Source: Candidatus Bathyarchaeota archaeon
Lineage (GTDB): Archaea > Thermoproteota > Bathyarchaeia > Bathyarchaeales > Bathyarchaeaceae
NCBI GenBank assembly: GCA_050123155.1
Contig: JASFHP010000001.1
Coordinates: 140,271 to 204,270 of the forward strand
Length of the DNA stretch: 64,000 nt
Direction: 5' to 3'
Shown here: piece after piece, positions 2,364 to 63,640 of the stretch
Layout of the letters: each line of letters opens with the position of its first letter
Position numbering within the stretch: position 1 is the stretch's first letter
Made by a program: the position numbers and the translations under genes
Notes under the pieces: generated by a model
The model's database searches: none
What the model saw: the letters and a program-made list of their open reading frames with translations, nothing else
Told to the model about the DNA's origin: nothing

Positions 2364-2647
2364 TTCAATTTTAAATGTTAAAGGGAGTGTAAGTCCTTTC
2401 TAGCACAAAAGCTTTGGTACCAATAAAACGCACAAACAACCACTCTTCAAGATTCTGGCAACAAAAAAATTTAAACAAAACATGCAAAAGCGCTTCCATC
2501 AACTTTCTCTTTTAGCTAAAAACAGCCAATTTTCCAACAAGAAATTTCAACAACGGCTACAATTAATCATGCAGTTTCACTCTTTTAGTCTCCCTTGATT
2601 TCTGGAAAAACAAGCAACACCCAATTATTCACACGAACTTTCCGCAT

Positions 2648-2700
2648 ATTAGGAGACTAATAAAGGTACATTGTTGAAAACAGTGTTTTTTCTGGAAAAC
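2648..2700 (+). repeat. Interspersed ~50-bp repeat, copy A
   Basis: attaggagactaataaaggtacattgttgaaaacagtgttttttctggaaaac aligns with copies at 10065, 10162, 10262, 32824(-) and 63451. Degenerate fragments (tagtctcc, tttctggaaaaac) also occur at about 2585-2615. It lies just 3' of the minus-strand gene 2712-3248. Confidence 0.8.
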
Positions 2701-2711
2701 CATCGCGCCCG

Positions 2712-3248
2712 TTAGATTTGTTGCTGGGATTTTGAATGACCGTGCATGTAACCGCGAAAAACCAGCAAGTATATGTAGTATATTATTCCGATGACTCCCA
2801 GCCAGACACAAATATTGTAGATTGTTGTGCTCAGAGAAGGATTGTAGAGCGGATTAACCGTTAGTGGATAAAAAGGTTGCATTTCGCTGTAGAGTGGAGC
2901 ATCAAAGAGAGTGTGGATTGTGGTACCTAAAACACCCGCAACCATGAAAGATTTCAAACCTAACTTGCCGTTCGGCTCCAACAGTAAAACACTGTAGAAG
3001 TTATGTAGAAATTTCTCGAGAAGAAACATCGTGTAACCAAGACCGAGACCCACAAGTAAGGCTAGAAGGAATGTGTGAAAATATCCGTGCAATGGATACC
3101 TTAACCCGAGAAGAAGAACCAAAAAAGGTTCGACATCGAGTATTACGTTGGCTAATATGAAGGTGGGGGCGTGCAAATATTTTCTGAATGGAAGTCCTAA
3201 AGCAAAAGCTGGACCCAAATGGAATGGCGTAAAAGGCATCAGCATCAC
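2712..3248 (-). CDS. Integral membrane protein, His-rich (possibly DUF4184-like metal-dependent hydrolase)
   Basis: N-terminus MPFTPFHLGPA resembles the MPFT.sHP start of DUF4184 proteins. Several TM segments and conserved-looking His residues. The family assignment is tentative. Confidence 0.55.
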   Translation of the reverse strand: MMLMPFTPFHLGPAFALGLPFRKYLHAPTFILANVILDVEPFLVLLLGLRYPLHGYFHTFLLALLVGLGLGYTMFLLEKFLHNFYSVLLLEPNGKLGLKSFMVAGVLGTTIHTLFDAPLYSEMQPFYPLTVNPLYNPSLSTTIYNICVWLGVIGIIYYIYLLVFRGYMHGHSKSQQQI

Positions 3249-6950: not shown

Positions 6951-7952
6951 ATGCTAAAGGAAGAAAATGGTATGAAACCAGATGAAGTAGACTTGGTTAA
7001 ACTCCTGCCAGAGGCTCGCGCCTTAGTCAGCAAAGTTGTCCAAAAAAATATGGCTGAAGGGATCCTGTTTTCAGCTGGAACTGACACAAGCATAATAGCC
7101 TATGAGGCAGTGAAATACAACCCAGACATTCAGGCGATAACAGTCTCTTTCAAACAAGGAAAACCTAGAGACACCGAATACGTAAAGAAAATGGTGGACT
7201 TTCTTAAACTCAATCACGAAACCCACGTCTTCAATGTGGAAGCCGCAATTGATGCTGCAAAAGACGTCGTTAAGGTGCTGAAGACTTTTGATCCAATGGA
7301 CGTCAGAAACACTCTTCCAGCATACATAGGATTAAAGGTAGCTAAAGAGAAAGGCCTCAAAAGCGTTATTACAGGCGATGCTTTAGACGAGCTCTTCGGT
7401 TATCCTTGGCAATTCCATCTATCCGAAACCGAGTTTGCTAAGGCATTATCTGATATGTGGGGCGAAATGGCCTTCTCCTCTACGCCTATGGGCGATTCAA
7501 TTGGCGTAAAAGTGCATCAACCCTATCTTGATCCCCTGTTCATGGACTACGCGAAGAAGCTTCCAGTGAGCCTCAAAGTAAACCTTCATAATGGAGAGAA
7601 ATATGGCAAATGGCTTCTCCGCAAAGCCTATGACGGATTCATTCCAGACGACGTAATCTGGCGAGGAAAAGCGCCTCTAGAACAAGGAACAGGAACATGG
7701 GTTCTGCCAGACTACTTTGAAGAAAAGATGCCGACAGCAGATTTCGAGGAGAAAAAGAAACTTATCCTAGAAGAAGACGATGTGGTAATCACTTCCAAAG
7801 AGCAACTGATATACTACGAGATTTTCAGAAAAACTTTCGGAAAACCCTCCGAAGTCTACGGTGAACCTGTCGGCAAACAATGTCCCAAATGCAAAGGATA
7901 CGTTAAAACAAAAATCGGATTCTGCAAAATCTGCGGAAACTACCCCATATAA
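6951..7952 (+). CDS. Asparagine-synthase-like synthetase domain only, with C-terminal zinc ribbon
   Basis: Blocks typical of the AsnB C-terminal domain are present (ITGDALDELFGYPW, KWLLRKAYDGFIPDDVIWRGK). The PP-loop position reads SAGTDTS instead of SGGxDS. There is no glutaminase domain. C-terminal CPKC...CKIC. Confidence 0.7.
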   Translation: MLKEENGMKPDEVDLVKLLPEARALVSKVVQKNMAEGILFSAGTDTSIIAYEAVKYNPDIQAITVSFKQGKPRDTEYVKKMVDFLKLNHETHVFNVEAAIDAAKDVVKVLKTFDPMDVRNTLPAYIGLKVAKEKGLKSVITGDALDELFGYPWQFHLSETEFAKALSDMWGEMAFSSTPMGDSIGVKVHQPYLDPLFMDYAKKLPVSLKVNLHNGEKYGKWLLRKAYDGFIPDDVIWRGKAPLEQGTGTWVLPDYFEEKMPTADFEEKKKLILEEDDVVITSKEQLIYYEIFRKTFGKPSEVYGEPVGKQCPKCKGYVKTKIGFCKICGNYPI

Positions 7953-8045
7953 CAAAGTGGTCAATACTCCAAATATTAACCACAAAAAATTTCTGCGGTA
8001 TAAAAAAAATGCTATTTCAATAAGTTCATTAAGACAAAAAACATA

Positions 8046-8408
8046 CTACAAGTGTTGGAAATCTGGAAGGTAGCTATTAATCAAACGATCTATGTCCTGT
8101 TGTGATATGTGATTTTCACTGTCAGGGTTATACCGAGCAACACGACTCTTATTATAAAGCGTTTGATACTTAGTTGAAACTGACCTCAAGTGAACTGAAA
8201 CATATCTATTTCTTCCGTGAGCCCCACCATGAACATCTGGATGAATATTTAGACGTGCCAGTCGTGAATCAACGTAATGTAAGCAAGCATAAAATAATAT
8301 AACGACTCTCCAATCATTAAATCCCGTTGTAGGTAAATTGTTATTCAGTAGACTGAGATTATGTTGAGCTTTTCTAATATGTGAAGGTCTGTCTCCCATT
8401 GACGTCAT
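8046..8408 (-). CDS. HEPN-like small protein, last gene of the AT-rich cassette
   Basis: Helical pattern KAQHNLSLL / WRVVILFYACLHYVDSRL. HGRNRYVSVH fits R-x4-6-H. YNKSRVARYNP resembles the Y..aRYP ending of classical HEPN domains. ATGA overlap with the upstream gene. Confidence 0.5.
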   Translation of the reverse strand: MTSMGDRPSHIRKAQHNLSLLNNNLPTTGFNDWRVVILFYACLHYVDSRLARLNIHPDVHGGAHGRNRYVSVHLRSVSTKYQTLYNKSRVARYNPDSENHISQQDIDRLINSYLPDFQHL

Positions 8409-8857
8409 CTCAATTCATTTTCTGGGAAAACTTTGATACTGTTATTGGGAAGTACATTCTGAAGATTCTGTTCATATAGTGGGTAAACCATGAAATCAAG
8501 ATCAAGTTCATTGTGTATACGCATTAATTCACACTGGGCTTCAGCGATTCTTTCCTCAACATTCAAATCATTTTCTCTAATGAATGTCCAAATGTCCACT
8601 AATTCTTCTTTTTCTATATAGTAAACCGCTTCGACTAGGTCAAGTTCATTGATTCTGTCGATATACAAATTTAGTGCAAAAACAAGACCCATTTTTTTTA
8701 TTAAGTTTTTCATGTCCTGTTGATAAACTTCCAAATTTTTTTTCAAAATATAATTCTTTTTCTTTTCTTCCTGTAATTTTAGGTGAGTCAAGCAGACACG
8801 ATCGCATCCCTGATAATCACCAACAGATTTAATAAAATCATAATGTTGTTCAGACAT
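8405..8857 (-). CDS. Hypothetical protein, middle gene of the AT-rich cassette
   Basis: ORF 8405-8911. The start at MSEQHYDF (8857) leaves a 6-nt gap after the upstream gene. No motif recognised, and no GS...D.D nucleotidyltransferase signature. Confidence 0.5.
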   Translation of the reverse strand: MSEQHYDFIKSVGDYQGCDRVCLTHLKLQEEKKKNYILKKNLEVYQQDMKNLIKKMGLVFALNLYIDRINELDLVEAVYYIEKEELVDIWTFIRENDLNVEERIAEAQCELMRIHNELDLDFMVYPLYEQNLQNVLPNNSIKVFPENELR

Positions 8858-9683
8858 TGGAATCCTCCACAAATAGTTTTGAAGATTCAACTCCATATTC
8901 ACAAACATCATTTAAAATGTTTTGAGAAATTTTGATTTTGGCAGAAAATTCTGAAAAGAAGGTGAAAGTATTTTTTCTAAATTCAAAACGGATTCTGTCA
9001 AGATTGGATGGAGAATCCTCAAAAGAAAGCTGAAGACCCGTAACATCAGCCTCACCTAAACGTTTTACAACATCTTTGGATAGCGGAATTTTCGTAGGTA
9101 AACTGAATCCACCTATAAGTTTATGCTTTTTTCTGCTAAATACAAACGTTACACAACCATTAACCACAACAAGTTTCGATTGCTTAATAGACAATATTTG
9201 TAAAAATTTTTTAATGGAAGCGTTTAGTTGAATTTTTTTAGTAAAATTTACAGGGCGCTTTTTGTTTTTTGGTTCACATCTCAAACTGAAGTGTACAATG
9301 CCTTCTTCTTCTGACCTTTTGTATTCTCTGAATTTTTTAACGTTGGCAATAACTTTCTTTCGGAGTGTTTCTATCTTCTTACTCAGCTCTGGAGGAGCTT
9401 CTTTAAAATCCTTTTCAAATTCACTTATTAGTTTCTTTTTTGATGGAACTGAATAAACGCCTAAACGAATGATGTTAGATTTAATTGGGTATTTTTGGAT
9501 AAAATAGATAAACCCCATTTTGTTAATCGGATTTTTTTCAATATTAAAAATATCAAATAATTGGGAGTTAATTTCTTCTAATTTGCTTTGAGATAAAATA
9601 ATACCCGTACACATACACAAACTCGAAAATAACTGCTCCATTTTTGAAGAATCACTCCAAATAAGTATTAGCTTTTCACACAT
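8850..9683 (-). CDS. Hypothetical Lys-rich protein, first gene of the AT-rich cassette
   Basis: 277-aa ORF in very AT-rich DNA. No Walker, nuclease or other motif recognised. Confidence 0.5.
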   Translation of the reverse strand: MCEKLILIWSDSSKMEQLFSSLCMCTGIILSQSKLEEINSQLFDIFNIEKNPINKMGFIYFIQKYPIKSNIIRLGVYSVPSKKKLISEFEKDFKEAPPELSKKIETLRKKVIANVKKFREYKRSEEEGIVHFSLRCEPKNKKRPVNFTKKIQLNASIKKFLQILSIKQSKLVVVNGCVTFVFSRKKHKLIGGFSLPTKIPLSKDVVKRLGEADVTGLQLSFEDSPSNLDRIRFEFRKNTFTFFSEFSAKIKISQNILNDVCEYGVESSKLFVEDSNV

Positions 9684-10064
9684 AACTTTCTTTCTATTTA
9701 TAAATCTATATTCTAGACCAAAAAAGGTGTGAAACAGATTTCTGCGGGCGCGTCTATTGAGATTTTGTCAAAGACAATTAAGAGATTAATTCTATCGAAA
9801 AAATGTGGAAGTGCTGGATTTTAACGGATGATAACCCCATTTGTCCCCTGTGCAAATCCTCGTGACCCCATCACGCGGAACAGGGGGCAGTTCACTTCGG
9901 TTAGTTAAATATACCTTTGCAGTTCTTGTGATAGTTAACTCCACAATTAATGATGATTACGCCCAATTAAAGTAACTTCGGCGTTACACTAATGATAACT
10001 ACCTTAGTTGCTGTGCATCAGCTACCCAAACATAACTGTTTGTTGTCCAACCGTATCCAAACAC

Positions 10065-10118
10065 ATTAGGAGACCAATAACAGAAGATTGCTGAAAACAG
10101 CTTTTTCTATGCAAGAAA
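10065..10118 (+). repeat. Interspersed ~50-bp repeat, copy B
   Basis: attaggagaccaataacagaagattgctgaaaacagctttttct... is the first of three tandem degenerate copies between the TFB 3' end and the AT-rich cassette. Confidence 0.8.
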
Positions 10119-10161
10119 ATGTGAACTCAGGAGACGAAAAAATTGCGCGGACGGCGTCTAT

Positions 10162-10210
10162 CAGTCTCCTAATAACAGATGATTGTTGAAAAAAAGCTTT
10201 TTTCTGAAAT
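10162..10210 (+). repeat. Interspersed ~50-bp repeat, copy C
   Basis: cagtctcctaataacagatgattgttgaaaaaaagcttttttctgaaat. The leading octamer agtctcct is the inverse complement of the aggagact seen in the other copies. Confidence 0.75.
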
Positions 10211-10261
10211 TCAGCAGCACAGCACCAAAACGCCGCAGACAGTTCACACAAACAAGCCAAA

Positions 10262-10295
10262 ACATTGTTGAGAACAGTCTTTTTTCTGATTTTCT
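10262..10295 (+). repeat. Interspersed repeat, copy D (3' half only)
   Basis: acattgttgagaacagtcttttttctgattttc matches the 3' half of the consensus. Confidence 0.65.
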
Positions 10296-10331
10296 ACACT
10301 GAATAAATCGTTAAAAAGAAAATTGGGGTTA

Positions 10332-11267
10332 CTAGAGGTAGATTACAAACTGGAGTCGTTCAACCAGTTCTTTGTAGCGGTTTCTTATGGTTACTTCTGT
10401 CACCTGGGCAATCTCCGCGATTTCTCTCTGGGTTTTTCTTTCTCCAGTCAGAACCGACGCAATGTAGCTGGCTGCCGCGGCTATGCCTGTGGGTCCTCTC
10501 CCTGACGTGAGCTTCATCTCTTTGGCTGCGCCGAGAATCTTGTGAGCAATCTCCTCAACCTTTCCCTGCATGGTCAGCTGGTTAGAAAACTTGGTTATGT
10601 ACTGGCTTGGCTTCAGGGGCGGAATAAAGTAGTTAAGTTCCTTTATTAGAAAACGGTAGCTTCGCCCAACCTCTTTCTTGTTTACAGTAGAAGCCTGCGC
10701 AATCTCGTCCAGAGTTCTAGCCACTCCACACTGTCGACAAGCCACGTAAATAGCGGCGGCAGTTACACCCTGAATAGACCTTCCTCGGATGAGACGCTCC
10801 TTAACAGCTTTACGATAGATAACTGAGGCAGTCTCAAGAATGTTTTTGGGCAAATTCAGATTATTAGCTATCTTAGATATCTCGGAAAGAGCAAAAGCAA
10901 GGTTTCGCTCAGTGGCGTCGGAGACTCTGATTCGTCGCTGCCACTTCCGCAACCTGTAAATTTGAGCCTTCTGACCCGGAGCAATCCTCTTGCCGTAAAC
11001 GTCCCGATCATGCCAGTCAATCATAGTTGAGAGACCTTTATCATGAATCGTGAATGTAAGTGGAGCACCGGCTCTGGCACGTTTAGCGCGCTGCTCATCA
11101 TCAAATGCTCGCCACTCTGGCCCTTGATCTGCAAGTTTGGCGGCGACGACGAAGCCGCAGTTCATGCAGACTATTTCAGCGCATTCGTAGTCTCGCATGA
11201 GACGATTGCTTCCGCATTCAGGGCATCTCCGAATCCTTGGAGGTTGTTGGATGTTTTCTTTTGTCAT
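10332..11267 (-). CDS. tfb: Transcription initiation factor IIB (TFB)
   Basis: N-terminal zinc ribbon CPECGS...CMNCG, then two cyclin-like repeats ([18 protein letters not shown] / [16 protein letters not shown]). Confidence 0.95.
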
Positions 11268-31441: not shown

Positions 31442-32812
31442 ATGCCTATTCTTCCAATCGACACAGGACGATACGGATCACCTGAAATGAGAGCAATCTT
31501 CGATGAAGAGAACAGACTGCAGAAGATGCTGGACGTGGAGGCGGCGCTGGCTTGGGCGCACAGTCAAGTAGGCAACATCCCAAAAAAGGACGCCCAAAAA
31601 ATCGTGGAGAAAGCCTCCACCAAATACGTCAAGCTTGAACGAGTGAAAGAGATTGAAAAAGAAATCAGGCACGACGTAATGGCTCTGGTCAGAGCATTAG
31701 CCGAAGCCTGCGGAACAAGCGGAGAATACGTTCACCTCGGAGCCACAAGCTCTGACATGCTGGACACCGCAACCGCCCTGCAGCTGAAGGAAGCAGTTGA
31801 CCTGATCGAGGAACGGCTGAACGAGCTGGAGTCAGTTCTGCTAGCCAGAGCGGAACAACACAAAATGAGCATCATGATGGGAAGAAGTCATGGTCAGCAT
31901 GCCCTGCCAACCACTTTCGGCTTCAAGTCCGCGGTGTGGACAAGAGAGGTCTCCAGACACATCCAGCGCCTCGGGGACTGTGAGGGAAGATTGCTTGTTG
32001 GTAAGATGAGCGGCGCAGTGGGAACTCAGGCGGGTTTAGGACCGAAGGCCCTCAAGATACAGGAGCTGGTTATGGAGCGGCTTGGCATCAAGGCAGCGGA
32101 CATTTCCACGCAGATTGTTCAGAGGGACAGGTATGCTGAACTTACCTGCATTCTAGCCATACTTGCCTCCACACTAGATAACATGGCATCTGAGGTTCGG
32201 GAACTGCAGAGACCCGAGATAGGCGAGGCTTTCGAGGCTTTCGAGCAGAAGAAGCAGGTTGGCAGCTCAACCATGCCCCACAAACGTAACCCCATGATAT
32301 CTGAGAGAATCTGCGGCTTGGCGAAGATACTGAGGAGCCTTGTTTCGCCGGCGCTGGAGAACGTTCCCACATGGCATGAACGTGACCTAACTCAGTCCTC
32401 GTGTGAGCGGTTTGTGATTCCGGAAGAGTGCATTCTCATTGATTACATGCTGATTTTGATGATTCGCGTGTTGAAGGGGCTGCAGGTAGACGAGACAAGG
32501 ATGCGGGAGAATATGGAGTTGACGCAGGGGCGGATGATGTCTGAGGCGGTTATGCTTGCTCTAGCAAAGAAGGGGCTGGGACGACAGAAAGCCCACGAAC
32601 TCACACGGGAACTGGCAATAAAAAGCCACAACCAGCAACGAAACTTCAAAGAAGTGCTCTGTGAAGACGTCACAGTCAGCAAGTTACTAACTAAAACAGA
32701 AATCGATGAGGTAATGGACCCACGAAACTATCTGGGCACAGCACCAAAACAGGTCGAACAAGTCATACAAAAAACCAGAAAAGAACGACAGGCAAGAGGC
32801 TTAACAGACTAG
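31442..32812 (+). CDS. purB: Adenylosuccinate lyase
   Basis: SSTMPHKRNP fumarate-lyase signature and a RYGSPEM start region. ATG at 31442 is preferred over the track's upstream extension. Confidence 0.92.
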   Translation: MPILPIDTGRYGSPEMRAIFDEENRLQKMLDVEAALAWAHSQVGNIPKKDAQKIVEKASTKYVKLERVKEIEKEIRHDVMALVRALAEACGTSGEYVHLGATSSDMLDTATALQLKEAVDLIEERLNELESVLLARAEQHKMSIMMGRSHGQHALPTTFGFKSAVWTREVSRHIQRLGDCEGRLLVGKMSGAVGTQAGLGPKALKIQELVMERLGIKAADISTQIVQRDRYAELTCILAILASTLDNMASEVRELQRPEIGEAFEAFEQKKQVGSSTMPHKRNPMISERICGLAKILRSLVSPALENVPTWHERDLTQSSCERFVIPEECILIDYMLILMIRVLKGLQVDETRMRENMELTQGRMMSEAVMLALAKKGLGRQKAHELTRELAIKSHNQQRNFKEVLCEDVTVSKLLTKTEIDEVMDPRNYLGTAPKQVEQVIQKTRKERQARGLTD

Positions 32813-32823
32813 CACCCAGTTTT

Positions 32824-32881
32824 GCTTGAAAAACAGAAAAAGACTGTTTTTTCAACAATGATCTGTTATTAGTCTCCTAAT
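32824..32881 (-). repeat. Interspersed ~50-bp repeat, copy E (most palindromic)
   Basis: The reverse complement reads attaggagactaataacagatcattgttgaaaaaacagtctttttctgtttttcaagc. It contains the hairpin ttgaaaaacag/ctgttttttcaa. It sits between convergent purB and the 241-aa gene and overlaps that gene's stop codon. Confidence 0.85.
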
Positions 32882-33602
32882 ATGAACTGTGTTCTGTTAG
32901 TTTCCTTTTGTAGACTGCAACCACCAAAGCCACTGTTAGAGTCAGCGGCAGAATTGTCCATGACGGAAACTCGGGAATTTCTTCATTCAATCGAATCTGG
33001 ACATTTTCTTCACTAATGGTTATTGTTTGTGTGTTGCTCCAACCACTTGCTTCAACAGGCGTTAAGGTATAACCAAATATAAACCAGACACGTTCATCTG
33101 CCCAATACTTATAATAACCAGCTAGTGCTTCAACCTGAAAATCTACTTGAGCATCATCAGGATAATCTGCTGGAATCGCCAAGACCGTATATTCAGAACT
33201 TGACGGAACTGGATTAGCTGAAGAAGAAGCATTACTGCGTGAATAAAGTTCTTCCCATTCGTCTCCGAAGTGCCCTTTGGTTCGAACATTATAGTAGAGG
33301 TTTATTTCATGTCCATCAGCATCAACATAAGGCGTAAAGGGTTGGTTCGTGATTACAATCTCTATTGACCTGTTTTTCACATGGTAACCAGGAGTGGTTT
33401 TCACAGTCTCCTCTCCTGTATACTCATCGATTTTTGTGGTAGTAACAGGTGACACATCATACGGATACGCCACAAGCTCTACAGTGAACTCGGGAACAGA
33501 CGGCTCACTTGCGCCACTAACGTATGAAACCTGAAAAGATAATCCACAGATCAGAATAGTTAATAAAAGCAAACGTGAAAGCGGTTTTGTCGTATTATCC
33601 AC
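32877..33602 (-). CDS. Secreted protein with PEF-CTERM-like anchor
   Basis: Signal peptide. C-terminus EIPEFPSWTILPLTLTVALVVAVYKRK. GTG start. Confidence 0.65.
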   Translation of the reverse strand: MDNTTKPLSRLLLLTILICGLSFQVSYVSGASEPSVPEFTVELVAYPYDVSPVTTTKIDEYTGEETVKTTPGYHVKNRSIEIVITNQPFTPYVDADGHEINLYYNVRTKGHFGDEWEELYSRSNASSSANPVPSSSEYTVLAIPADYPDDAQVDFQVEALAGYYKYWADERVWFIFGYTLTPVEASGWSNTQTITISEENVQIRLNEEIPEFPSWTILPLTLTVALVVAVYKRKLTEHSSY

Positions 33603-33652
33603 TTCACTAGACCCATATAAGTAATCAAATTTGCTAACAAAAAAGCGTTTTT

Positions 33653-33668
33653 GTCAAGAAAGTTTGAC
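33653..33668. promoter_or_regulatory. Palindromic site GTCAAGAAAGTTTGAC (proximal) upstream of 32877-33602
   Basis: GTCAA-N6-TTGAC inverted repeat, one of four near-identical sites in the window. Confidence 0.6.
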
Positions 33669-33686
33669 CAAACCTGTCTCTTCATT

Positions 33687-33702
33687 GTCAAGGAAATTTG
33701 AC
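33687..33702. promoter_or_regulatory. Palindromic site GTCAAGGAAATTTGAC (distal) upstream of 32877-33602
   Basis: Starts 34 bp from the proximal site. The same spacing occurs at 36736/36770. Confidence 0.6.
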
Positions 33703-33767
33703 CAACAAATTATGTGTTCATCTGCATGGCGAATAGAAGCGAGTTATTGATTAAGGCTCGATACGGT

Positions 33768-35390
33768 TCAGTTTTTTGTTGGTCGCCTTTTGTATATCGC
33801 AACTGCGATAGTTACGATCAGGACAATCGTTACGGTTAGGATTAACGGTAAAATTGTCCATGAAGGAAACTCTGAGATTATGTGGGGTTCCATTAGTGGG
33901 TAGTGGTCGATGTTGTTTTCGTTGATGTAGAATGGTGTGTCTCCTATTCCGGTGTTGCCGATTTCGGAGGCGTTTGAGTATCTGGTCAGGTAGTCGCTCC
34001 AGTAGTTGCCGCTGGTTCCGTTATCCCATGTGCTTGGATTGGCGACGGGCGAATCCGCGGCGGGCGGCAACATGGACACCTGTATTCTGTCGCCCGGTCC
34101 GTTGTCGATGAAGTTGTTATGGTATATGATGTTGTCATGCTGGTCGCCGAGGATCCGGATGCCCCATTGGTTGTTTTCTGTCACGTTGTTTTCGGCGAAA
34201 TGATTGTTGCATGAGTGCAGGAGTTTGACGCCGAAGATATCTCCTGAATAGCTTTCGTATGGAAGGGGGTAGTCGTTTTCCCCTTTTCCGAAGCCGTTGT
34301 TTGCCACGTTGTTTTGTTTCAGGGTGTTGTAGTGTGAGTTGGTGAGCAGCAGACCATAGTAACTGTTGCTGCTGATGTTGTTGGCGACGATTTCGTTGTA
34401 GTCACAGTTGACTAGTTCTAAACCGAATTCGTTGCATACCAGCGAGTTACCAGTTATTGTGTTGTTTGAAGATTCAACCATCTGAATGCCGAATTGCCCA
34501 CCCGAGAGGATGTTTCCTGCTATCAGCGAATTAGTTGTTGAAGATATGCTCACACCGCTTGCATGGAGGTTCTGGACATTTATGTTTTCGCAGTTGGAGA
34601 GCACCACGTAACCTGCGTCTGAAGGCACAGTTTCGTCTCGGTGACCCGTCCAATGGATTATTGGTTTGCCGTTGACCAAATTTGAGGCGTCGATGTCGTT
34701 GTCGAAGCTGGAGACCTTGAGGGCGATTCCTGTGCAGTTGATGGTGTTGTTTCTGAACAGGTTTTGGCTGCCTCTGAGGGAAACGCCTATGGCTGAGGTG
34801 CTTATGATGTTGTCTGAAAAGGTGTTGTTGTCGGACTCCATTAGGCTCAGCCCAACTAGAGAATCTGTGACAGTGTTTCCTGTGATAACGTTTTCTTGGC
34901 ACCCGTAGTTTGGCGACTCAAAAAAGTAGAACACATACGATGCGGCAGAAATCATGTTTCCGGTGATGTTGTTTCTCCAAGACCACCAAAAGTAAACTGC
35001 TCTTTCAGAGTTGATTATGGTGTTTCCAACGATGGTGTTGTCATCCGCGTAAGTGAGGTCGAAGCCGCAATGCGTATCCTTCAGCACAAGATTCCTGACG
35101 GTAACACCATGTCTATAATGCAGGTCGATGCCGTATCCACTGTTTGCTGACAGAGTGTACCCTGCCCCGTCGATTGTTATGTTGTCTCTCTCAACAAAAA
35201 CAGTGCCAGAAATGTTGCCGGTAAAAGAGTACAAGTTTCCTGTTTGTTCTATCTTATCTGTGCCCTCAACAGTTCCATCCTCTCTAATGTAGATCTTGTC
35301 TTCAGCTTTCACCATCTCAATTTGTAGAAAAGAAACTACAGAGACAGAGAGAAGCAGCAACATAGCAAGCAGAGATGCAGACCGTTTCAC
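33768..35390 (-). CDS. Secreted right-handed parallel beta-helix repeat protein (NosD/PbH1-like) with PEF-CTERM-like anchor
   Basis: Signal peptide and many N-x-I/V-x-G-N repeats. C-terminus SEFPSWTILPLILTV...YKRR. GTGA overlap with the upstream gene. Confidence 0.8.
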   Translation of the reverse strand: MKRSASLLAMLLLLSVSVVSFLQIEMVKAEDKIYIREDGTVEGTDKIEQTGNLYSFTGNISGTVFVERDNITIDGAGYTLSANSGYGIDLHYRHGVTVRNLVLKDTHCGFDLTYADDNTIVGNTIINSERAVYFWWSWRNNITGNMISAASYVFYFFESPNYGCQENVITGNTVTDSLVGLSLMESDNNTFSDNIISTSAIGVSLRGSQNLFRNNTINCTGIALKVSSFDNDIDASNLVNGKPIIHWTGHRDETVPSDAGYVVLSNCENINVQNLHASGVSISSTTNSLIAGNILSGGQFGIQMVESSNNTITGNSLVCNEFGLELVNCDYNEIVANNISSNSYYGLLLTNSHYNTLKQNNVANNGFGKGENDYPLPYESYSGDIFGVKLLHSCNNHFAENNVTENNQWGIRILGDQHDNIIYHNNFIDNGPGDRIQVSMLPPAADSPVANPSTWDNGTSGNYWSDYLTRYSNASEIGNTGIGDTPFYINENNIDHYPLMEPHIISEFPSWTILPLILTVTIVLIVTIAVAIYKRRPTKN

Positions 35391-36688
35391 TGTTTCACTC
35401 CACTTTGATTTTGTTTATGTAGCCTTCGCCTGTAAACAACTGGCACAGCTACAACTGCAGCCAGAGTAACCGGTAAGATGAGCCATAATAGAACTTCTGG
35501 ATTGTCATGCGGCTCTTCATGTGGCTCTGTTTTGATTAACCAGTAGTCATAGGCACCCGTTTCCCATGATTTTATCGCACCAGACAGGGCGAAACCGCCA
35601 TCTGAAGTTTGAACTAGAGAAGGATAACCCAAAACTTCTCCTCCAGCATATGTCTGATTCCACTGCATATTTCCTTGGTTGTCGGTCTTGATTAACAAGA
35701 AATCAGCAAAAATATTCTCATCATTAGTAACCATGTAACCTGCTAAAGCAAAACCGCCATCTGAGGTTTGAACTGCAGAAGGATGAAACTCCCTGTATTG
35801 TGTTCCATAGGTCTGAGACCATTCTACATTTCCATTTTCATCGAGTTTAGTTAAATAAAAATCTGCTCCCCCCTCGCCAGAAGAGTAGGTAATACCAGCT
35901 AAAACAAAACCTCCATTCGACAACTGCGCAAAAGAAGAAACACCAGCCATGTTTGAGTCAGGATAGGATTGGTTCCATTTTACATTTCCAGCTGCATCAG
36001 TTTTAATGACCACAAAACCGGTGACCCCGCCAAGCGATGAGTATGTTTTGTGTATAAAAGCAAACCCTTCATCGAGGGTTTGAATCAGACCAGAACCGCT
36101 CTCCTGTTCAGAATAATTGTATAGTCTACTCCATTCTTTGTTGCCGTACGAGTCTGTTTTGATCAACAAAACATCGTCGTAATCTCCAACAGATGAAAAG
36201 GAGTTACCTAATAGGGCATATCCTCCATCTTTTGTTTGAACCAAGGAAGACCCCTGATAGCATCCTACTTCTTCATCGAAGGTTTGACTCCATTCCATGT
36301 TCCCATCGGCATCGGTCTTGCCTAACCAAACATATGACCAAAACCCGTCAGGCAAATACCCAACAGGTATATACTCGCCAATATAAGATGAATTTGTGCC
36401 CACAAAGGCGAAGCCGCCATCTAGAGTTTGAATAAACGGAGCCCCAGCAGCTGTTTTGTTCCACTGCATATTTCCATCTGCGTCAGTTTTCACCAACCAA
36501 GCAACACCATCCCCAAACGAGAAAGCAGAGCCAAGCAAAGCAAATCCATCATCATCGGTCTGAACCATAGAGGTACAAACATCCATTCCGTCGCCTCCAT
36601 AGGTTTGACTCCACATCATTGAAGAAGCAGAAACAGAAATAACGGAGAGAACCAGAAATAAAACGACCACAGATATGACTTTCTTCAT
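35387..36688 (-). CDS. Secreted repeat protein (about 8 copies of a ~50-aa DGGFAL...KTD..GN..W..TYG unit; beta-propeller-like) with C-terminal TM anchor
   Basis: Internal repeats are visible by eye. The ATG at 36688 (MKKVISVV) is preceded by AGGTG. C-terminal TM plus RRR. Confidence 0.75.
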   Translation of the reverse strand: MKKVISVVVLFLVLSVISVSASSMMWSQTYGGDGMDVCTSMVQTDDDGFALLGSAFSFGDGVAWLVKTDADGNMQWNKTAAGAPFIQTLDGGFAFVGTNSSYIGEYIPVGYLPDGFWSYVWLGKTDADGNMEWSQTFDEEVGCYQGSSLVQTKDGGYALLGNSFSSVGDYDDVLLIKTDSYGNKEWSRLYNYSEQESGSGLIQTLDEGFAFIHKTYSSLGGVTGFVVIKTDAAGNVKWNQSYPDSNMAGVSSFAQLSNGGFVLAGITYSSGEGGADFYLTKLDENGNVEWSQTYGTQYREFHPSAVQTSDGGFALAGYMVTNDENIFADFLLIKTDNQGNMQWNQTYAGGEVLGYPSLVQTSDGGFALSGAIKSWETGAYDYWLIKTEPHEEPHDNPEVLLWLILPVTLAAVVAVPVVYRRRLHKQNQSGVKQ

Positions 36689-36735
36689 TTTGCACCTAAA
36701 CACCACTACTACAACTTTGTATGAAAAAGGTTTTT

Positions 36736-36751
36736 GTCAAGAAACCTTGAC
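36736..36751. promoter_or_regulatory. Palindromic site GTCAAGAAACCTTGAC (proximal) upstream of 35387-36688
   Basis: Same motif and flank (tttttGTCAAGAAA) as 33653-33668. Confidence 0.6.
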
Positions 36752-36769
36752 TAACTTGCCGTTTGGCTG

Positions 36770-59678: not shown

Positions 59679-59755
59679 GCCTCGGTGGCTCAGCCCGGTA
59701 GAGCGGCAGCCTCGTAAGCTGTTGGTCGCGGGATCAAATCCCGCCCGAGGCTCCA
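59679..59755 (+). tRNA. tRNA-Thr (CGU), CCA encoded
   Basis: Hand-folded cloverleaf: GCCTCGG/CCGAGGC acceptor, anticodon loop CTCGTAA, T loop ATCAAAT. A TATA-like tcttaaaaat lies about 30 nt upstream. Confidence 0.9.
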
Positions 59756-59886
59756 TTCTTGCGGCGGATGCCTGTTTTATGCTAGATTTTGGTGCTGTTT
59801 GAGGATAAAAAAAGTCTTCAGGATACGGAGAGTATATATTGTTTCGTAATGAATCGATTATTCTAATGATTCGGAGGAGACGTGTG

Positions 59887-60792
59887 ATGGTTGAGAAGAA
59901 ACTTGTAGCACTCAGTTTGATTTGTGTTGTTCTGTGTGTTGCAGTTGTTGGCGCTGTGGTGATAGTTAATCAGAAAGACGATGAATTGCAAATGAAGGCA
60001 GATCAAATCTCTGGACTTGAAAACGAAAGAATTAGTTTAGAGGCTCAAGTGGCAGATCTCCAGTCTGAAATTGCGTCATTAGGCGACGAAAAGTCTGCTC
60101 TTGAAAATCAGGTTTCAACGTTACAGGCCAACATTACAAGCCTCCAAGCCGAAATCACGTCATTAGAAAACGAAAAGAGCACACTAGAAATGCAAATTTC
60201 AGCTTTACAAGCCAACATCTCAGATCTCCAATCAGAAACAGTTTCATTGAACAATGACAAGTCTGCTCTGGAAGATCAAGTGGTGACTCTCCAGTCTGAA
60301 ATTGCGTCATTAGGCGACGAAAAGTCTGCTCTTGAGAATCAGGTTTCAGCGTTACAGGCCAACATTACAAGTCTCCAGACTGATATCATGTTGTTAGAGG
60401 ATGAGGTGATTGAAAGCTACCAGATCGGCTATGATGCGGGATATGATCAAGGTGTGGAGGATGGGGCTGGAAGCGGCTGGAACATTAGGGACCCAACGTA
60501 TGCCGAGGCGATTGCTTTCGTAAATTCGGATAGAACAAACGAAAACGAGTATACTGACGATTATGTTTGCTACGATTTCACAGCCGACTTCAACACCAAC
60601 GCATTTCAGATGGGCTACAGATGCGGTTTCGTATATATCGAATTTTCTAAAACAGCCCATGCGATAACCTGTTTCAACACCACTGACAGCGGACTGATTT
60701 ACATAGAACCACAAACCGATGAAATTGTTGATGTGTCGGTCGGTCAACTATATTTAGATAAAGTCATAGTGAAAATGGGCATAATTTGGTGA
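59887..60792 (+). CDS. Membrane-anchored coiled-coil protein with C-terminal Cys/His (transglutaminase/papain-like) domain
   Basis: N-terminal TM segment. About 180 aa of 28-residue periodic coiled coil. C-terminal YVCYDFTADF...TAHAITCF...IYIEPQTDE, a pattern compatible with a Cys-His-Asp/Glu triad. Confidence 0.7.
   Translation: MVEKKLVALSLICVVLCVAVVGAVVIVNQKDDELQMKADQISGLENERISLEAQVADLQSEIASLGDEKSALENQVSTLQANITSLQAEITSLENEKSTLEMQISALQANISDLQSETVSLNNDKSALEDQVVTLQSEIASLGDEKSALENQVSALQANITSLQTDIMLLEDEVIESYQIGYDAGYDQGVEDGAGSGWNIRDPTYAEAIAFVNSDRTNENEYTDDYVCYDFTADFNTNAFQMGYRCGFVYIEFSKTAHAITCFNTTDSGLIYIEPQTDEIVDVSVGQLYLDKVIVKMGIIW
60057..60146 (+). repeat. Intragenic direct repeat, copy 1
   Basis: About 90 bp that is near-identical (4 mismatches seen) to 60288-60377, offset 231 bp (77 codons). 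Confidence 0.85.
60288..60377 (+). repeat. Intragenic direct repeat, copy 2
   Basis: See copy 1. Encodes LQSEIASLGDEKSALENQVS(T/A)LQANITSLQ. Confidence 0.85.
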
Positions 60793-63339: not shown

Positions 63340-63416
63340 GCCTCGGTGGCTCAGCCCGGTAGAGCGGCAGCCTTGTAAGCTGTTGGTCGCGGGATCAAAT
63401 CCCGCCCGAGGCTCCA
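63340..63416 (+). tRNA. tRNA-Thr (UGU), CCA encoded
   Basis: Identical to the tRNA at 59679-59755 except for anticodon position 34 (loop CTTGTAA). Confidence 0.9.
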
Positions 63417-63450
63417 CAATTATAACATGAACTTTCTAGACATCAATCAT

Positions 63451-63501
63451 ATTAAGAGCTTAATAACAGAAGATTGTTGAACAGCCTTTTTTCTGGAAAA
63501 C
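63451..63501 (+). repeat. Interspersed ~50-bp repeat, copy F
   Basis: attaagagcttaataacagaagattgttgaacagccttttttctggaaaac, 35 nt downstream of tRNA-Thr(UGU). Confidence 0.8.
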
Positions 63502-63640
63502 ATAAGCAACAACCAGCGGTAGCAATGTTGTCTCAAAAGTGGACGATATTATATCAAATGTGGCCGGGGTGAGATAATTTCAGCAGAAAATGGTGATATC
63601 CCCCGCAAATACCTCCTTTTTTAGTGCATTGATGGAAGAA

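Follow-up and report, generated by a model that had tools for sequence, protein, structure and literature searches.

What is the short sequence that recurs six times in a 64,000-nucleotide stretch of the genome of a sediment-dwelling member of the Bathyarchaeia, and what keeps it next to the ends of genes? The stretch (the window) covers C1:140271-204270 of the genome under study, referred to as G000 (1.98 Mb, 27 contigs, 45% GC). A first-pass annotation, made from the letters of the window, had described a family of about 50-bp repeats lying always at gene 3′ ends, and had proposed a bidirectional terminator or 3′ untranslated region (3′-UTR) element, a miniature mobile element or a recombination site as its possible role. 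In this work we have analyzed the repeat in the whole G000 genome, in its closest species and in the remaining members of the genus. With a probability of roughly 60%, the six copies belong to a genus-restricted, non-coding dispersed repeat family of Candidatus Bathyarchaeum-like archaea that is present in about 100 copies per genome, behaves like the repetitive extragenic palindromes (REP) and bacterial interspersed mosaic elements (BIME) or the BOX and SPRITE repeats of bacteria, and acts as a hot spot of recombination. To our knowledge, small dispersed repeats have been well described in bacteria and poorly in archaea. A full-text search of the literature returned no such repeat for Bathyarchaeia, and the family is apparently an undescribed archaeal member of the small dispersed intergenic repeats.

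A family profile was built from 73 genomic copies and run on the whole genome with a family threshold of E < 1e-6. The search gave 101 copies in G000, 98 of which were mapped to intergenic spacers, non-coding DNA making up 15% of the genome (p = 7e-76). Exactly six matches, five full units and one 3′ half, fell in the window, far beyond chance, and the number of copies claimed by the first-pass annotation is therefore correct. Distribution of the mapped copies between the three kinds of spacer was as follows, the expected numbers being derived from spacer length.

Convergent spacers: 37 copies, 15.8 expected, p = 2e-7.
Divergent spacers: 16 copies (in 14 spacers), 30.9 expected, p = 1e-3.
Tandem spacers: 45 copies (19 sense, 26 antisense), 51.3 expected, p = 0.22.

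The orientation of copies in tandem spacers is unbiased (p = 0.37). In the pooled set of 174 copies from G000 and its closest species, 93 follow a co-oriented gene and 28 of these began no more than 20 nt from its stop codon, and the distance from a gene start was at least 50 nt in 145 of 155 cases, only 10 copies lying closer. Placement at 3′ ends is a strong bias with exceptions, and the strand of the copy is indifferent. All six window copies do adjoin the 3′ end of a gene or a tRNA, and the genome-wide bias whose absence the first-pass annotation had named as refuting its proposal exists, but the "always" of that annotation is not a rule, as 16 of the 98 mapped copies lie between divergent genes.

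The repeat unit is 55-65 bp long and consists of CA-TATTAG-N4-CTAATA, a 7-nt linker, the sequence ATTGTTGAAAACAG, TCTTTTTTCWG and a variable tail. Column conservation calculated over 243 distinct copies from about 15 genomes delimits a conserved block from CATATTAGG at the 5′ side to TTTTTTCWGRAAA at the 3′ side, in which four modules can be recognized: the palindrome, the linker, the ATTGTTGAAAACAG box and the T6 run. The 16-bp palindrome TATTAG-N4-CTAATA is found in 241 of the 243 distinct copies, with nearly invariant arms and a variable 4-nt centre that is seen either way round (GAGA/TCTC, GAGC/GCTC). Arm changes disrupt the pairing (19 T-T, 8 C-A and 7 T-T) as opposed to one compensated pair. 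The linker defines three subtypes, GAGGTAC, AAGGTAC and ACAGnnn; the consensus given in the first-pass annotation corresponds to the ACAG-linker subtype. Tails are of the type CTGRAAAACCAAGCAAC, CTGTTTTTTCAAG or CTGAAATTCAGCAGCACAGCA...GTTCACAC. At least five consecutive T residues are present on the sense strand in 162 of the 174 copies, and the antisense strand carries T4, contributed by the invariant GAAAAC of the core. Besides single units there are head-to-tail arrays of two to three diverged units with a period of 82-95 nt.

The copies of the window, together with one degenerate remnant, are listed below.

2584-2622, plus strand: degenerate remnant of a second unit upstream of copy A, ttttagtctccc...ttctggaaaaacaagcaaca, in which part of a palindrome precedes the family tail CTGGAAAAACAAGCAACA.
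2642-2705, plus strand: copy A, full unit, with palindrome TATTAGGAGACTAATA at 2647-2662, linker AAGGTAC, ATTGTTGAAAACAG at 2670-2683 and T6 at 2686-2691.
10060-10114, plus strand: copy B, first of three head-to-tail units, with palindrome variant CATTAGGAGACCAATA, ACAG linker and T-run weakened to CTTTTTC.
10156-10220, plus strand: copy C, second unit, with flipped palindrome centre TATCAGTCTCCTAATA and "class 2" tail CTGAAATTCAGCAGCACAGCA.
10262-10297, plus strand: copy D, third unit, 3′ half only, ATTGTTGAGAACAGTCTTTTTTCTG, profile positions 29-64.
32821-32886 (profile match 32834-32886), minus strand: copy E, between convergent purB (stop 32810-32812) and the open reading frame (ORF) of 241 amino acids.
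63444-63506, plus strand: copy F, 28 nt after tRNA-Thr(UGU) at 63340-63416, with compensated palindrome change TATTAAGAGCTTAATA.

Independent of the profile, the 20-mer ATTAGGAGACTAATAACAGA with up to three mismatches was matched at 2648, 10065, 32881 (minus strand) and 63451, four matches against 0.01 expected from shuffled sequences, and repeat grouping of the window placed copies A, B, C and F in one family, to which D was added as a 3′ half. Only 7 nt separate the end of the tail of copy A from the stop codon of ORF 2712-3248, which is on the minus strand; copy A is thus antisense to that gene, and TTCACAC at 2629-2635, directly upstream of the copy, corresponds to the left flank of the "class 2" unit. 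The remnant at 2584-2622 was read by eye against the family tails and scores below the profile threshold. The genome has about ten composites of this kind, and the array B-C-D, which lies downstream of tfb (minus strand, 10332-11267), is one of them; GTTCACAC at approximately 10241-10248 precedes copy D, as in the third unit of composite arrays elsewhere. AT-rich neighbourhood, proposed in the first-pass annotation for two loci, was found at B-D (33% GC at 8-10 kb against 45% in the genome) and is weak at F (41%). The low-GC stretch 8000-10000 between this array and the gene 6951-7952 is probably foreign DNA; its ORF 8850-9683 matches nothing in Pfam, and for ORF 8405-8911 the fetched sequence of the closest species contains no orthologue.

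Copy E is composed of the palindrome at 32867-32882, ATTGTTGAAAAAACAG at 32844-32859 and a T5-CTG-T5 tail at 32825-32843, and the stop codon TAG of the 241-amino-acid ORF (32877-32879) falls within the palindrome. The closest species has a copy at the orthologous site. The 11-bp hairpin ascribed to copy E is indeed present (arms 32826-36 and 32844-55; -17.1 kcal/mol on the minus strand, z = -2.7), being a tail variant of a few copies and not a trait of the family. At the site of copy F five relatives were examined and none has a copy, and synteny with four other species stops just after the tRNA gene. Loss of synteny directly after a tRNA gene is the usual sign of a tRNA-linked variable region. 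The two tRNA-Thr genes of the window, at 59679-59755 (CGU) and 63340-63416 (UGU), are 99% identical over 78 nt.

Gain and loss of copies could be followed by comparison with the closest species (G018), of which 1.45 Mb was fetched, with 73 copies of the repeat and 1011 reciprocal best hits to G000 at a mean protein identity of 85%. Among spacers between adjacent orthologues, seven hold a copy in both species, five in G000 only and two in G018 only, and three differ in the number of units. One of the G000-only cases is a clean insertion of 128 nt which corresponds to a whole "class 2" unit bounded by TTCACAC...GTTCACAC, and one 395-nt insertion specific for G018 is flanked by an imperfect direct repeat of 11-17 nt, these two being the only informative sites. 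Changes in unit number have their breakpoints inside the conserved core (ATTGTTG...T-run), as would be expected of unequal exchange between tandem units. All subtypes are common to both species, with 28 copies of GAGGTAC in G000 against 7 in G018, and GAGGTnC was found at four of the five G000-only sites versus one of the seven shared ones (p = 0.07).

Evidence for the role in recombination comes from gene order. Spacers with a copy are syntenic between the two species in 12 of 34 cases, as compared with 679 of 790 spacers without a copy (p = 8e-11). Copies are present in 1.7% of syntenic spacers, in 11% of junctions with local insertions or deletions (indels) and in 39% (7/18) of long-range breakpoints. 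At broken junctions a copy is also found next to the orthologous gene end of G018 in 24 of 44 cases, versus 8 of 218 (p = 2e-15). An inversion that measures 26 kb in G000 and 18 kb in G018 has inverted copies at its ends in both species (G000 C2:108309-134295; G018 C3:22541-40469): the order in G000 is a788, copy (+), a789...a815, copy (-), a816, and in G018 it is b827, copy (+), b828 (~a815)...b844 (~a789), copy (-), b845. A further copy, internal to the inverted segment, adjoins a gene block absent from G018.

Repeat copies have also been used as integration sites. In G000 the 11-mer CCTAATAACAG is present at C1:303221 and again at 313326, 10,105 bp apart, at the ends of a segment C1:303221-313336 whose left junction reads ...GCATATTAGGAA|CCTAATAACAG|GTAAG... 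and whose right junction reads ...TGTGTT|CCTAATAACAG|AAGATTGGTGAAAAACAGCTTTTCG. When the outer flanks were joined they scored as a family member with E = 3e-11, as opposed to 0.06 and 0.018 for the halves alone. This 10.1-kb integrase island is integrated inside one repeat copy, and its duplicated 11-bp core lies in the right palindrome arm. It encodes a tyrosine integrase at the right end (C1:312062-313264, minus strand), a product with a weak P-loop ATPase match and about ten to a dozen orphan ORFs, carries 13-bp inverted repeats, TTAACCGAATATT, located within the island at about 40 nt from each junction, and has no orthologues in the fetched part of G018. A less clean case was found in another species (G013). 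Its island is low in GC, measures about 17 kb, has a 32%-identical integrase at one end and is bordered by two parts of a copy, the left one comprising the palindrome, the linker and ATTGTTGAAAACA, the right one GTTGTTGAAAATAAG and the T-run; the crossover point is ambiguous. Four of six loci of this integrase family, in four species, have a copy within about 300 nt (p = 2e-5), and the integrase-side flank ..AACGTT..GGAATCTAGAGC stands beside the palindrome in a further genome (G006) and at two G000 loci. With copies marking synteny breaks, the ends of the 26-kb inversion and the integration sites of islands, the recombination-site role suggested in the first-pass annotation is supported in substance.

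The family is present in 23 of the 24 other species of the genus (24 of 25 genomes including G000), and in other genera of the order weak matches were seen in 2 of the 15 searched. Exact matches to a 23-mer of the repeat were found in at least 12 metagenome-assembled genomes (MAGs) of Bathyarchaeia or Candidatus Bathyarchaeum and otherwise only in two short contigs binned as bacteria, CAZPNF010000374 ("uncultured bacterium") and CAYTBB010000098 ("Dehalococcoidales"), which are probably mis-binned. The exact 23-mer had no match in viral contigs. A degenerate 27-mer retrieved three IMG/VR records classed as provirus fragments with one copy each. In one of them the copy stands between a small membrane-protein gene, directly after its stop codon, and the gene for the large terminase; its homologue in G000 is the copy at C3:123.7 kb, which also directly follows the stop codon of a small membrane-protein gene. 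The surrounding G000 region, at about 123.7 kb of C3, is homologous to a tailed-provirus fragment with genes for a minor tail protein and the large terminase.

The nature of the family is best seen in comparison with known systems. SPRITE and BOX are small repeats of Streptococcus pneumoniae (Croucher et al. 2011, PMC3049150; reviewed in PMC10969869). Like them, the archaeal repeat is small, interspersed and intergenic, with about 100 copies per 2-Mb genome and no transposase of its own, and like BOX it is modular with a variable number of internal units, its copies clustering and varying between relatives. As in that type of element, arrays of one to three units are formed, G000 and G018 have unequal numbers of units at three syntenic sites and no dedicated transposase was found. 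The look of a terminator is shared with SPRITE; however, SPRITE is a bacterial hairpin-plus-U mimic of a rho-independent terminator, whereas the unit described here has only weak A/T hairpins and relies on bare U-tracts, the latter being the archaeal signal. There is no relation in sequence to either, and here copies are also integration sites for integrase islands.

REP/BIME and REPIN-RAYT elements are known from E. coli, Pseudomonas and Stenotrophomonas (PMC3116915, PMC3733652), and a conserved GTAG or CGTC tetranucleotide at one end is the hallmark of REP (PMC3733652). The features in common are an extragenic palindrome in high copy number, a bias towards 3′ ends and convergent spacers, mosaics, vertical persistence restricted to a lineage, and the behaviour as recombination hot spots and as targets of other mobile DNA. 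In contrast, the repeat analyzed here has no GTAG or CGTC in its conserved columns and no RAYT in the 25 genomes, it forms head-to-tail arrays and not the inverted doublets of REPINs, and its A/T-rich palindrome, with arms of only 6-7 bp, is part of a longer non-palindromic unit in an archaeal host. It thus lacks the three defining marks of REP-RAYT, i.e. the tag, the RAYT and the inverted doublets.

Miniature transposable elements with inverted repeats (MITEs) of archaea include the SM elements of Sulfolobus and the PATEs of Haloquadratum (PMC10969869). They resemble the repeat in being non-coding and multicopy, in numbers that differ between relatives, but a MITE is marked by terminal inverted repeats, by target-site duplications and by a parent insertion sequence (IS) with matching ends. 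Of these three marks, terminal inverted repeats and a parent IS are lacking. Some likeness to integron attC sites, and to other multi-copy targets such as REPs that receive IS insertions, can also be noted, namely the imperfect palindrome at an ORF 3′ end, the crossover of a tyrosine recombinase in one arm and the variable genes flanked by copies; attC sites differ in being arrayed by the integrase, whereas the copies described here are chromosome-wide and mostly flank core genes, integrases being sporadic (6/25).

Several results weigh against the reading as a proliferating, recombination-prone family. The RAYT (Y1 transposase, PF01797) was found in none of the 25 genomes of the genus, two single-contig ones included, while it was detected in 6 of 14 control genomes. 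TnpB was not found in G000. An IS91-type transposase was not found either, a negative that is uninformative because the model was equally silent in the control genomes. The only DDE transposases, encoded by two DDE_Tnp_1 genes, are on the small contigs C23 and C24, neither of which has a profile match, and no multicopy transposase family was found in G000. The unit has no terminal inverted repeats, since its ends are not inverted copies of each other and the only palindrome is internal, towards the 5′ side, and the clean 128-nt insertion shows no target-site duplication. Copy polymorphism within the species was not seen, and gain cannot be told from loss because the closest species is only about 85% identical at the protein level. 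Variable genes lie directly beside copies, yet most such indels have one flanking copy and not two, so the association with breaks may in part be due to permissive spacers in which repeats as well as new genes accumulate. The placement counts depend on gene positions from our own crude ORF caller (85% coding) supplemented with tRNAs, and the T5 runs present at about 30% of element-free gene ends versus 18% upstream of gene starts indicate that the genome-wide oligo-T signal is modest.

The miniature mobile element of the first-pass annotation is likewise supported in substance. Candidate counts on a first look range from 7 to 115 per genome across the genus (97 for G000, the true number being 101), copies have been gained or lost at syntenic sites and subtypes have expanded by lineage; these copy-number differences, which that annotation had advised to look for between strains, are differences between species. 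In the absence of terminal inverted repeats, a clear target-site duplication and a partner transposase the repeat is, however, not a classical MITE. Two protein families were considered as mobilisers and dropped: one of seven copies, of about 435-amino-acid secreted proteins judged by eye to be periplasmic-binding-like (C4:132851-138193, C7:93134-98462 and five other loci), twice paired with a second one of four copies, of about 1310-amino-acid proteins of repeat/ATPase-like appearance, also by eye. The solo repeat palindromes found beside these genes are part of their shared 3′ flanks. The idea of gene cassettes, a single gene between two direct copies, was likewise rejected, with about seven pairs 0.9-1.9 kb apart against roughly ten by chance, a figure estimated by us from the positions and not a computed test.

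Among the other explanations, the one to which we give most weight takes the repeat as primarily a host-selected bidirectional terminator or 3′-UTR module, at which RNA polymerase and aCPSF1 would stop and which would be kept to insulate genes. Archaeal terminators are U-tracts read by these two factors (PMC8716108, PMC7515710), U4 tracts being a sufficient signal (PMC8716108). As far as the letters go, the repeat offers U6 on one strand, nearly invariant, and an invariant U4 on the other directly downstream of stop codons, and a role as a bidirectional terminator is plausible. The closeness to stop codons, the 2.3-fold over-representation in convergent spacers and the occurrence after tRNA genes fit this role, and the absent orientation bias is what a two-way signal predicts. 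It is not enough alone, because it accounts neither for the palindrome and the ATTGTTG box nor for the copies found in 14 divergent spacers; ordinary archaeal terminators are not conserved 55-nt repeats and a U-tract needs no such context. About 95% of gene-end spacers have no copy, the tenfold range of copy number in the genus and the turnover at syntenic sites misfit a fixed regulatory part, and a scan for bacterial-type terminators flags no copy. Selection for an antisense T-run was tried and rejected, as a long run (at least five T in the tail, the core T4 ignored) is rarer near a convergent gene (18/66) than elsewhere (54/108). We regard termination as the primary function of the repeat as unlikely. 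The repeats could instead be dispersed multi-copy attB sites, loosely attC-like, for tyrosine integrases, with the palindrome and its variable centre as the recombinase core site through which gene flux would pass. The copy split by the 10.1-kb island, with the duplicated core in the palindrome arm, the G013 island, the integrase loci that adjoin copies in four species, their common flank, the copies in provirus fragments and the variable genes directly beside copies all point that way. Against it, the crossover point within the unit is not the same for the two islands, the integrase family is known from 6 of 25 genomes and the repeat from 24, most copy-adjacent indels have a single copy, the breaks in the ATTGTTG...T-run core fit homologous and not site-specific exchange, pairs 1-2 kb apart are about as frequent as by our estimate of chance, and being a target does not explain the origin of 100 copies. 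That attB sites are what these repeats primarily are seems quite improbable; somewhat less so, although still doubtful, is the broader proposal that they are genome-wide docking sites co-evolving with tyrosine-integrase elements and proviruses and forming the main channel of gene flux and rearrangement in this uncultured lineage, such that mobile DNA could enter at any of some 100 copies and the chromosome would be reordered by exchange between them. If true, such a system would be an archaeal genome-wide counterpart of attC or of REP-targeted insertion.

Half-sites TATTAG/CTAATA could also be read by a host architectural or topological DNA-binding protein. Gyrase and IHF bind BIMEs in E. coli. 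The half-sites are nearly invariant while the centre varies and flips, the non-compensating arm changes fit reading by a dimer better than a hairpin, and exact 23-nt matches have been kept in 12 or more species. On the other hand, no candidate protein came to light, an essential chromosomal role would agree poorly with a copy number that varies tenfold and with the near-absence of the family from three species of the genus, and we consider such a protein as the reason for the repeat to be very unlikely. Last, the unit might encode or form a structured RNA, be it a small RNA, a cis-regulatory 3′-UTR structure or a CRISPR-like repeat. Copy E folds well and the end ATTGTTGAAAAC recalls the termini of archaeal CRISPR repeats, but Rfam found nothing except three tRNAs in the window, shuffled sequences fold as well as the consensus on either strand (z = +0.48 and -0.91), and RNAalifold on the 243 distinct copies gave no consensus pair on either strand, so that the check for conserved RNA structure proposed in the first-pass annotation turned out negative. 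There is no CRISPR array in G000. Structured RNA and a CRISPR-like origin were both rejected on these grounds and are hardly tenable.

A dispersed, recombination-prone repeat family thus remains the reading that we prefer, and it can be put as follows. The repeat multiplies and is lost within lineages, and copies survive only where harmless or useful, that is in spacers, flush against stop codons and away from promoters, as their distribution shows. Near-identical copies provide substrates for recombination leading to gain and loss of units, inversions and synteny breaks, and integrase-bearing islands dock inside them. With U6 on one strand and U4 on the other, a copy would probably stop archaeal RNA polymerase from either side, and such two-way stopping would explain why copies are kept at gene ends. 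For the invariant half-sites TATTAG/CTAATA and the ATTGTTG box the simplest reading is that they serve as recognition sequence for a protein that copies or binds the element.

The puzzle posed by the family is that about 100 near-identical copies are present while no RAYT, TnpB or matching IS was found that could make them. At the same time the repeat is a ready marker for the genus and is likely to cause breaks of contigs and mis-binning of MAGs, and it gives a handle on transcript ending, chromosome rearrangement and insertion of integrative elements in a lineage for which there is hardly any genetics: copies, and not tRNA genes, are where the two islands are inserted, and one inversion is pinned to a pair of copies.

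Two further repeated sequences were noticed in the window. Three copies of the 31-nt motif AAAAGCGTTTTTGTCAAGAAAGTTTGACCAA, which includes the inverted pair TTGTCAAG...TTTGAC, are located at 33641-33705 and 36724-36754, upstream of the surface-protein genes 32877-33602 and 35387-36706, and may represent a shared promoter or operator. Near-identical direct repeats of 84-147 nt, prone to length variation, are found at 60040-60398 inside the ORF 59839-60792 that encodes a coiled-coil-like protein.

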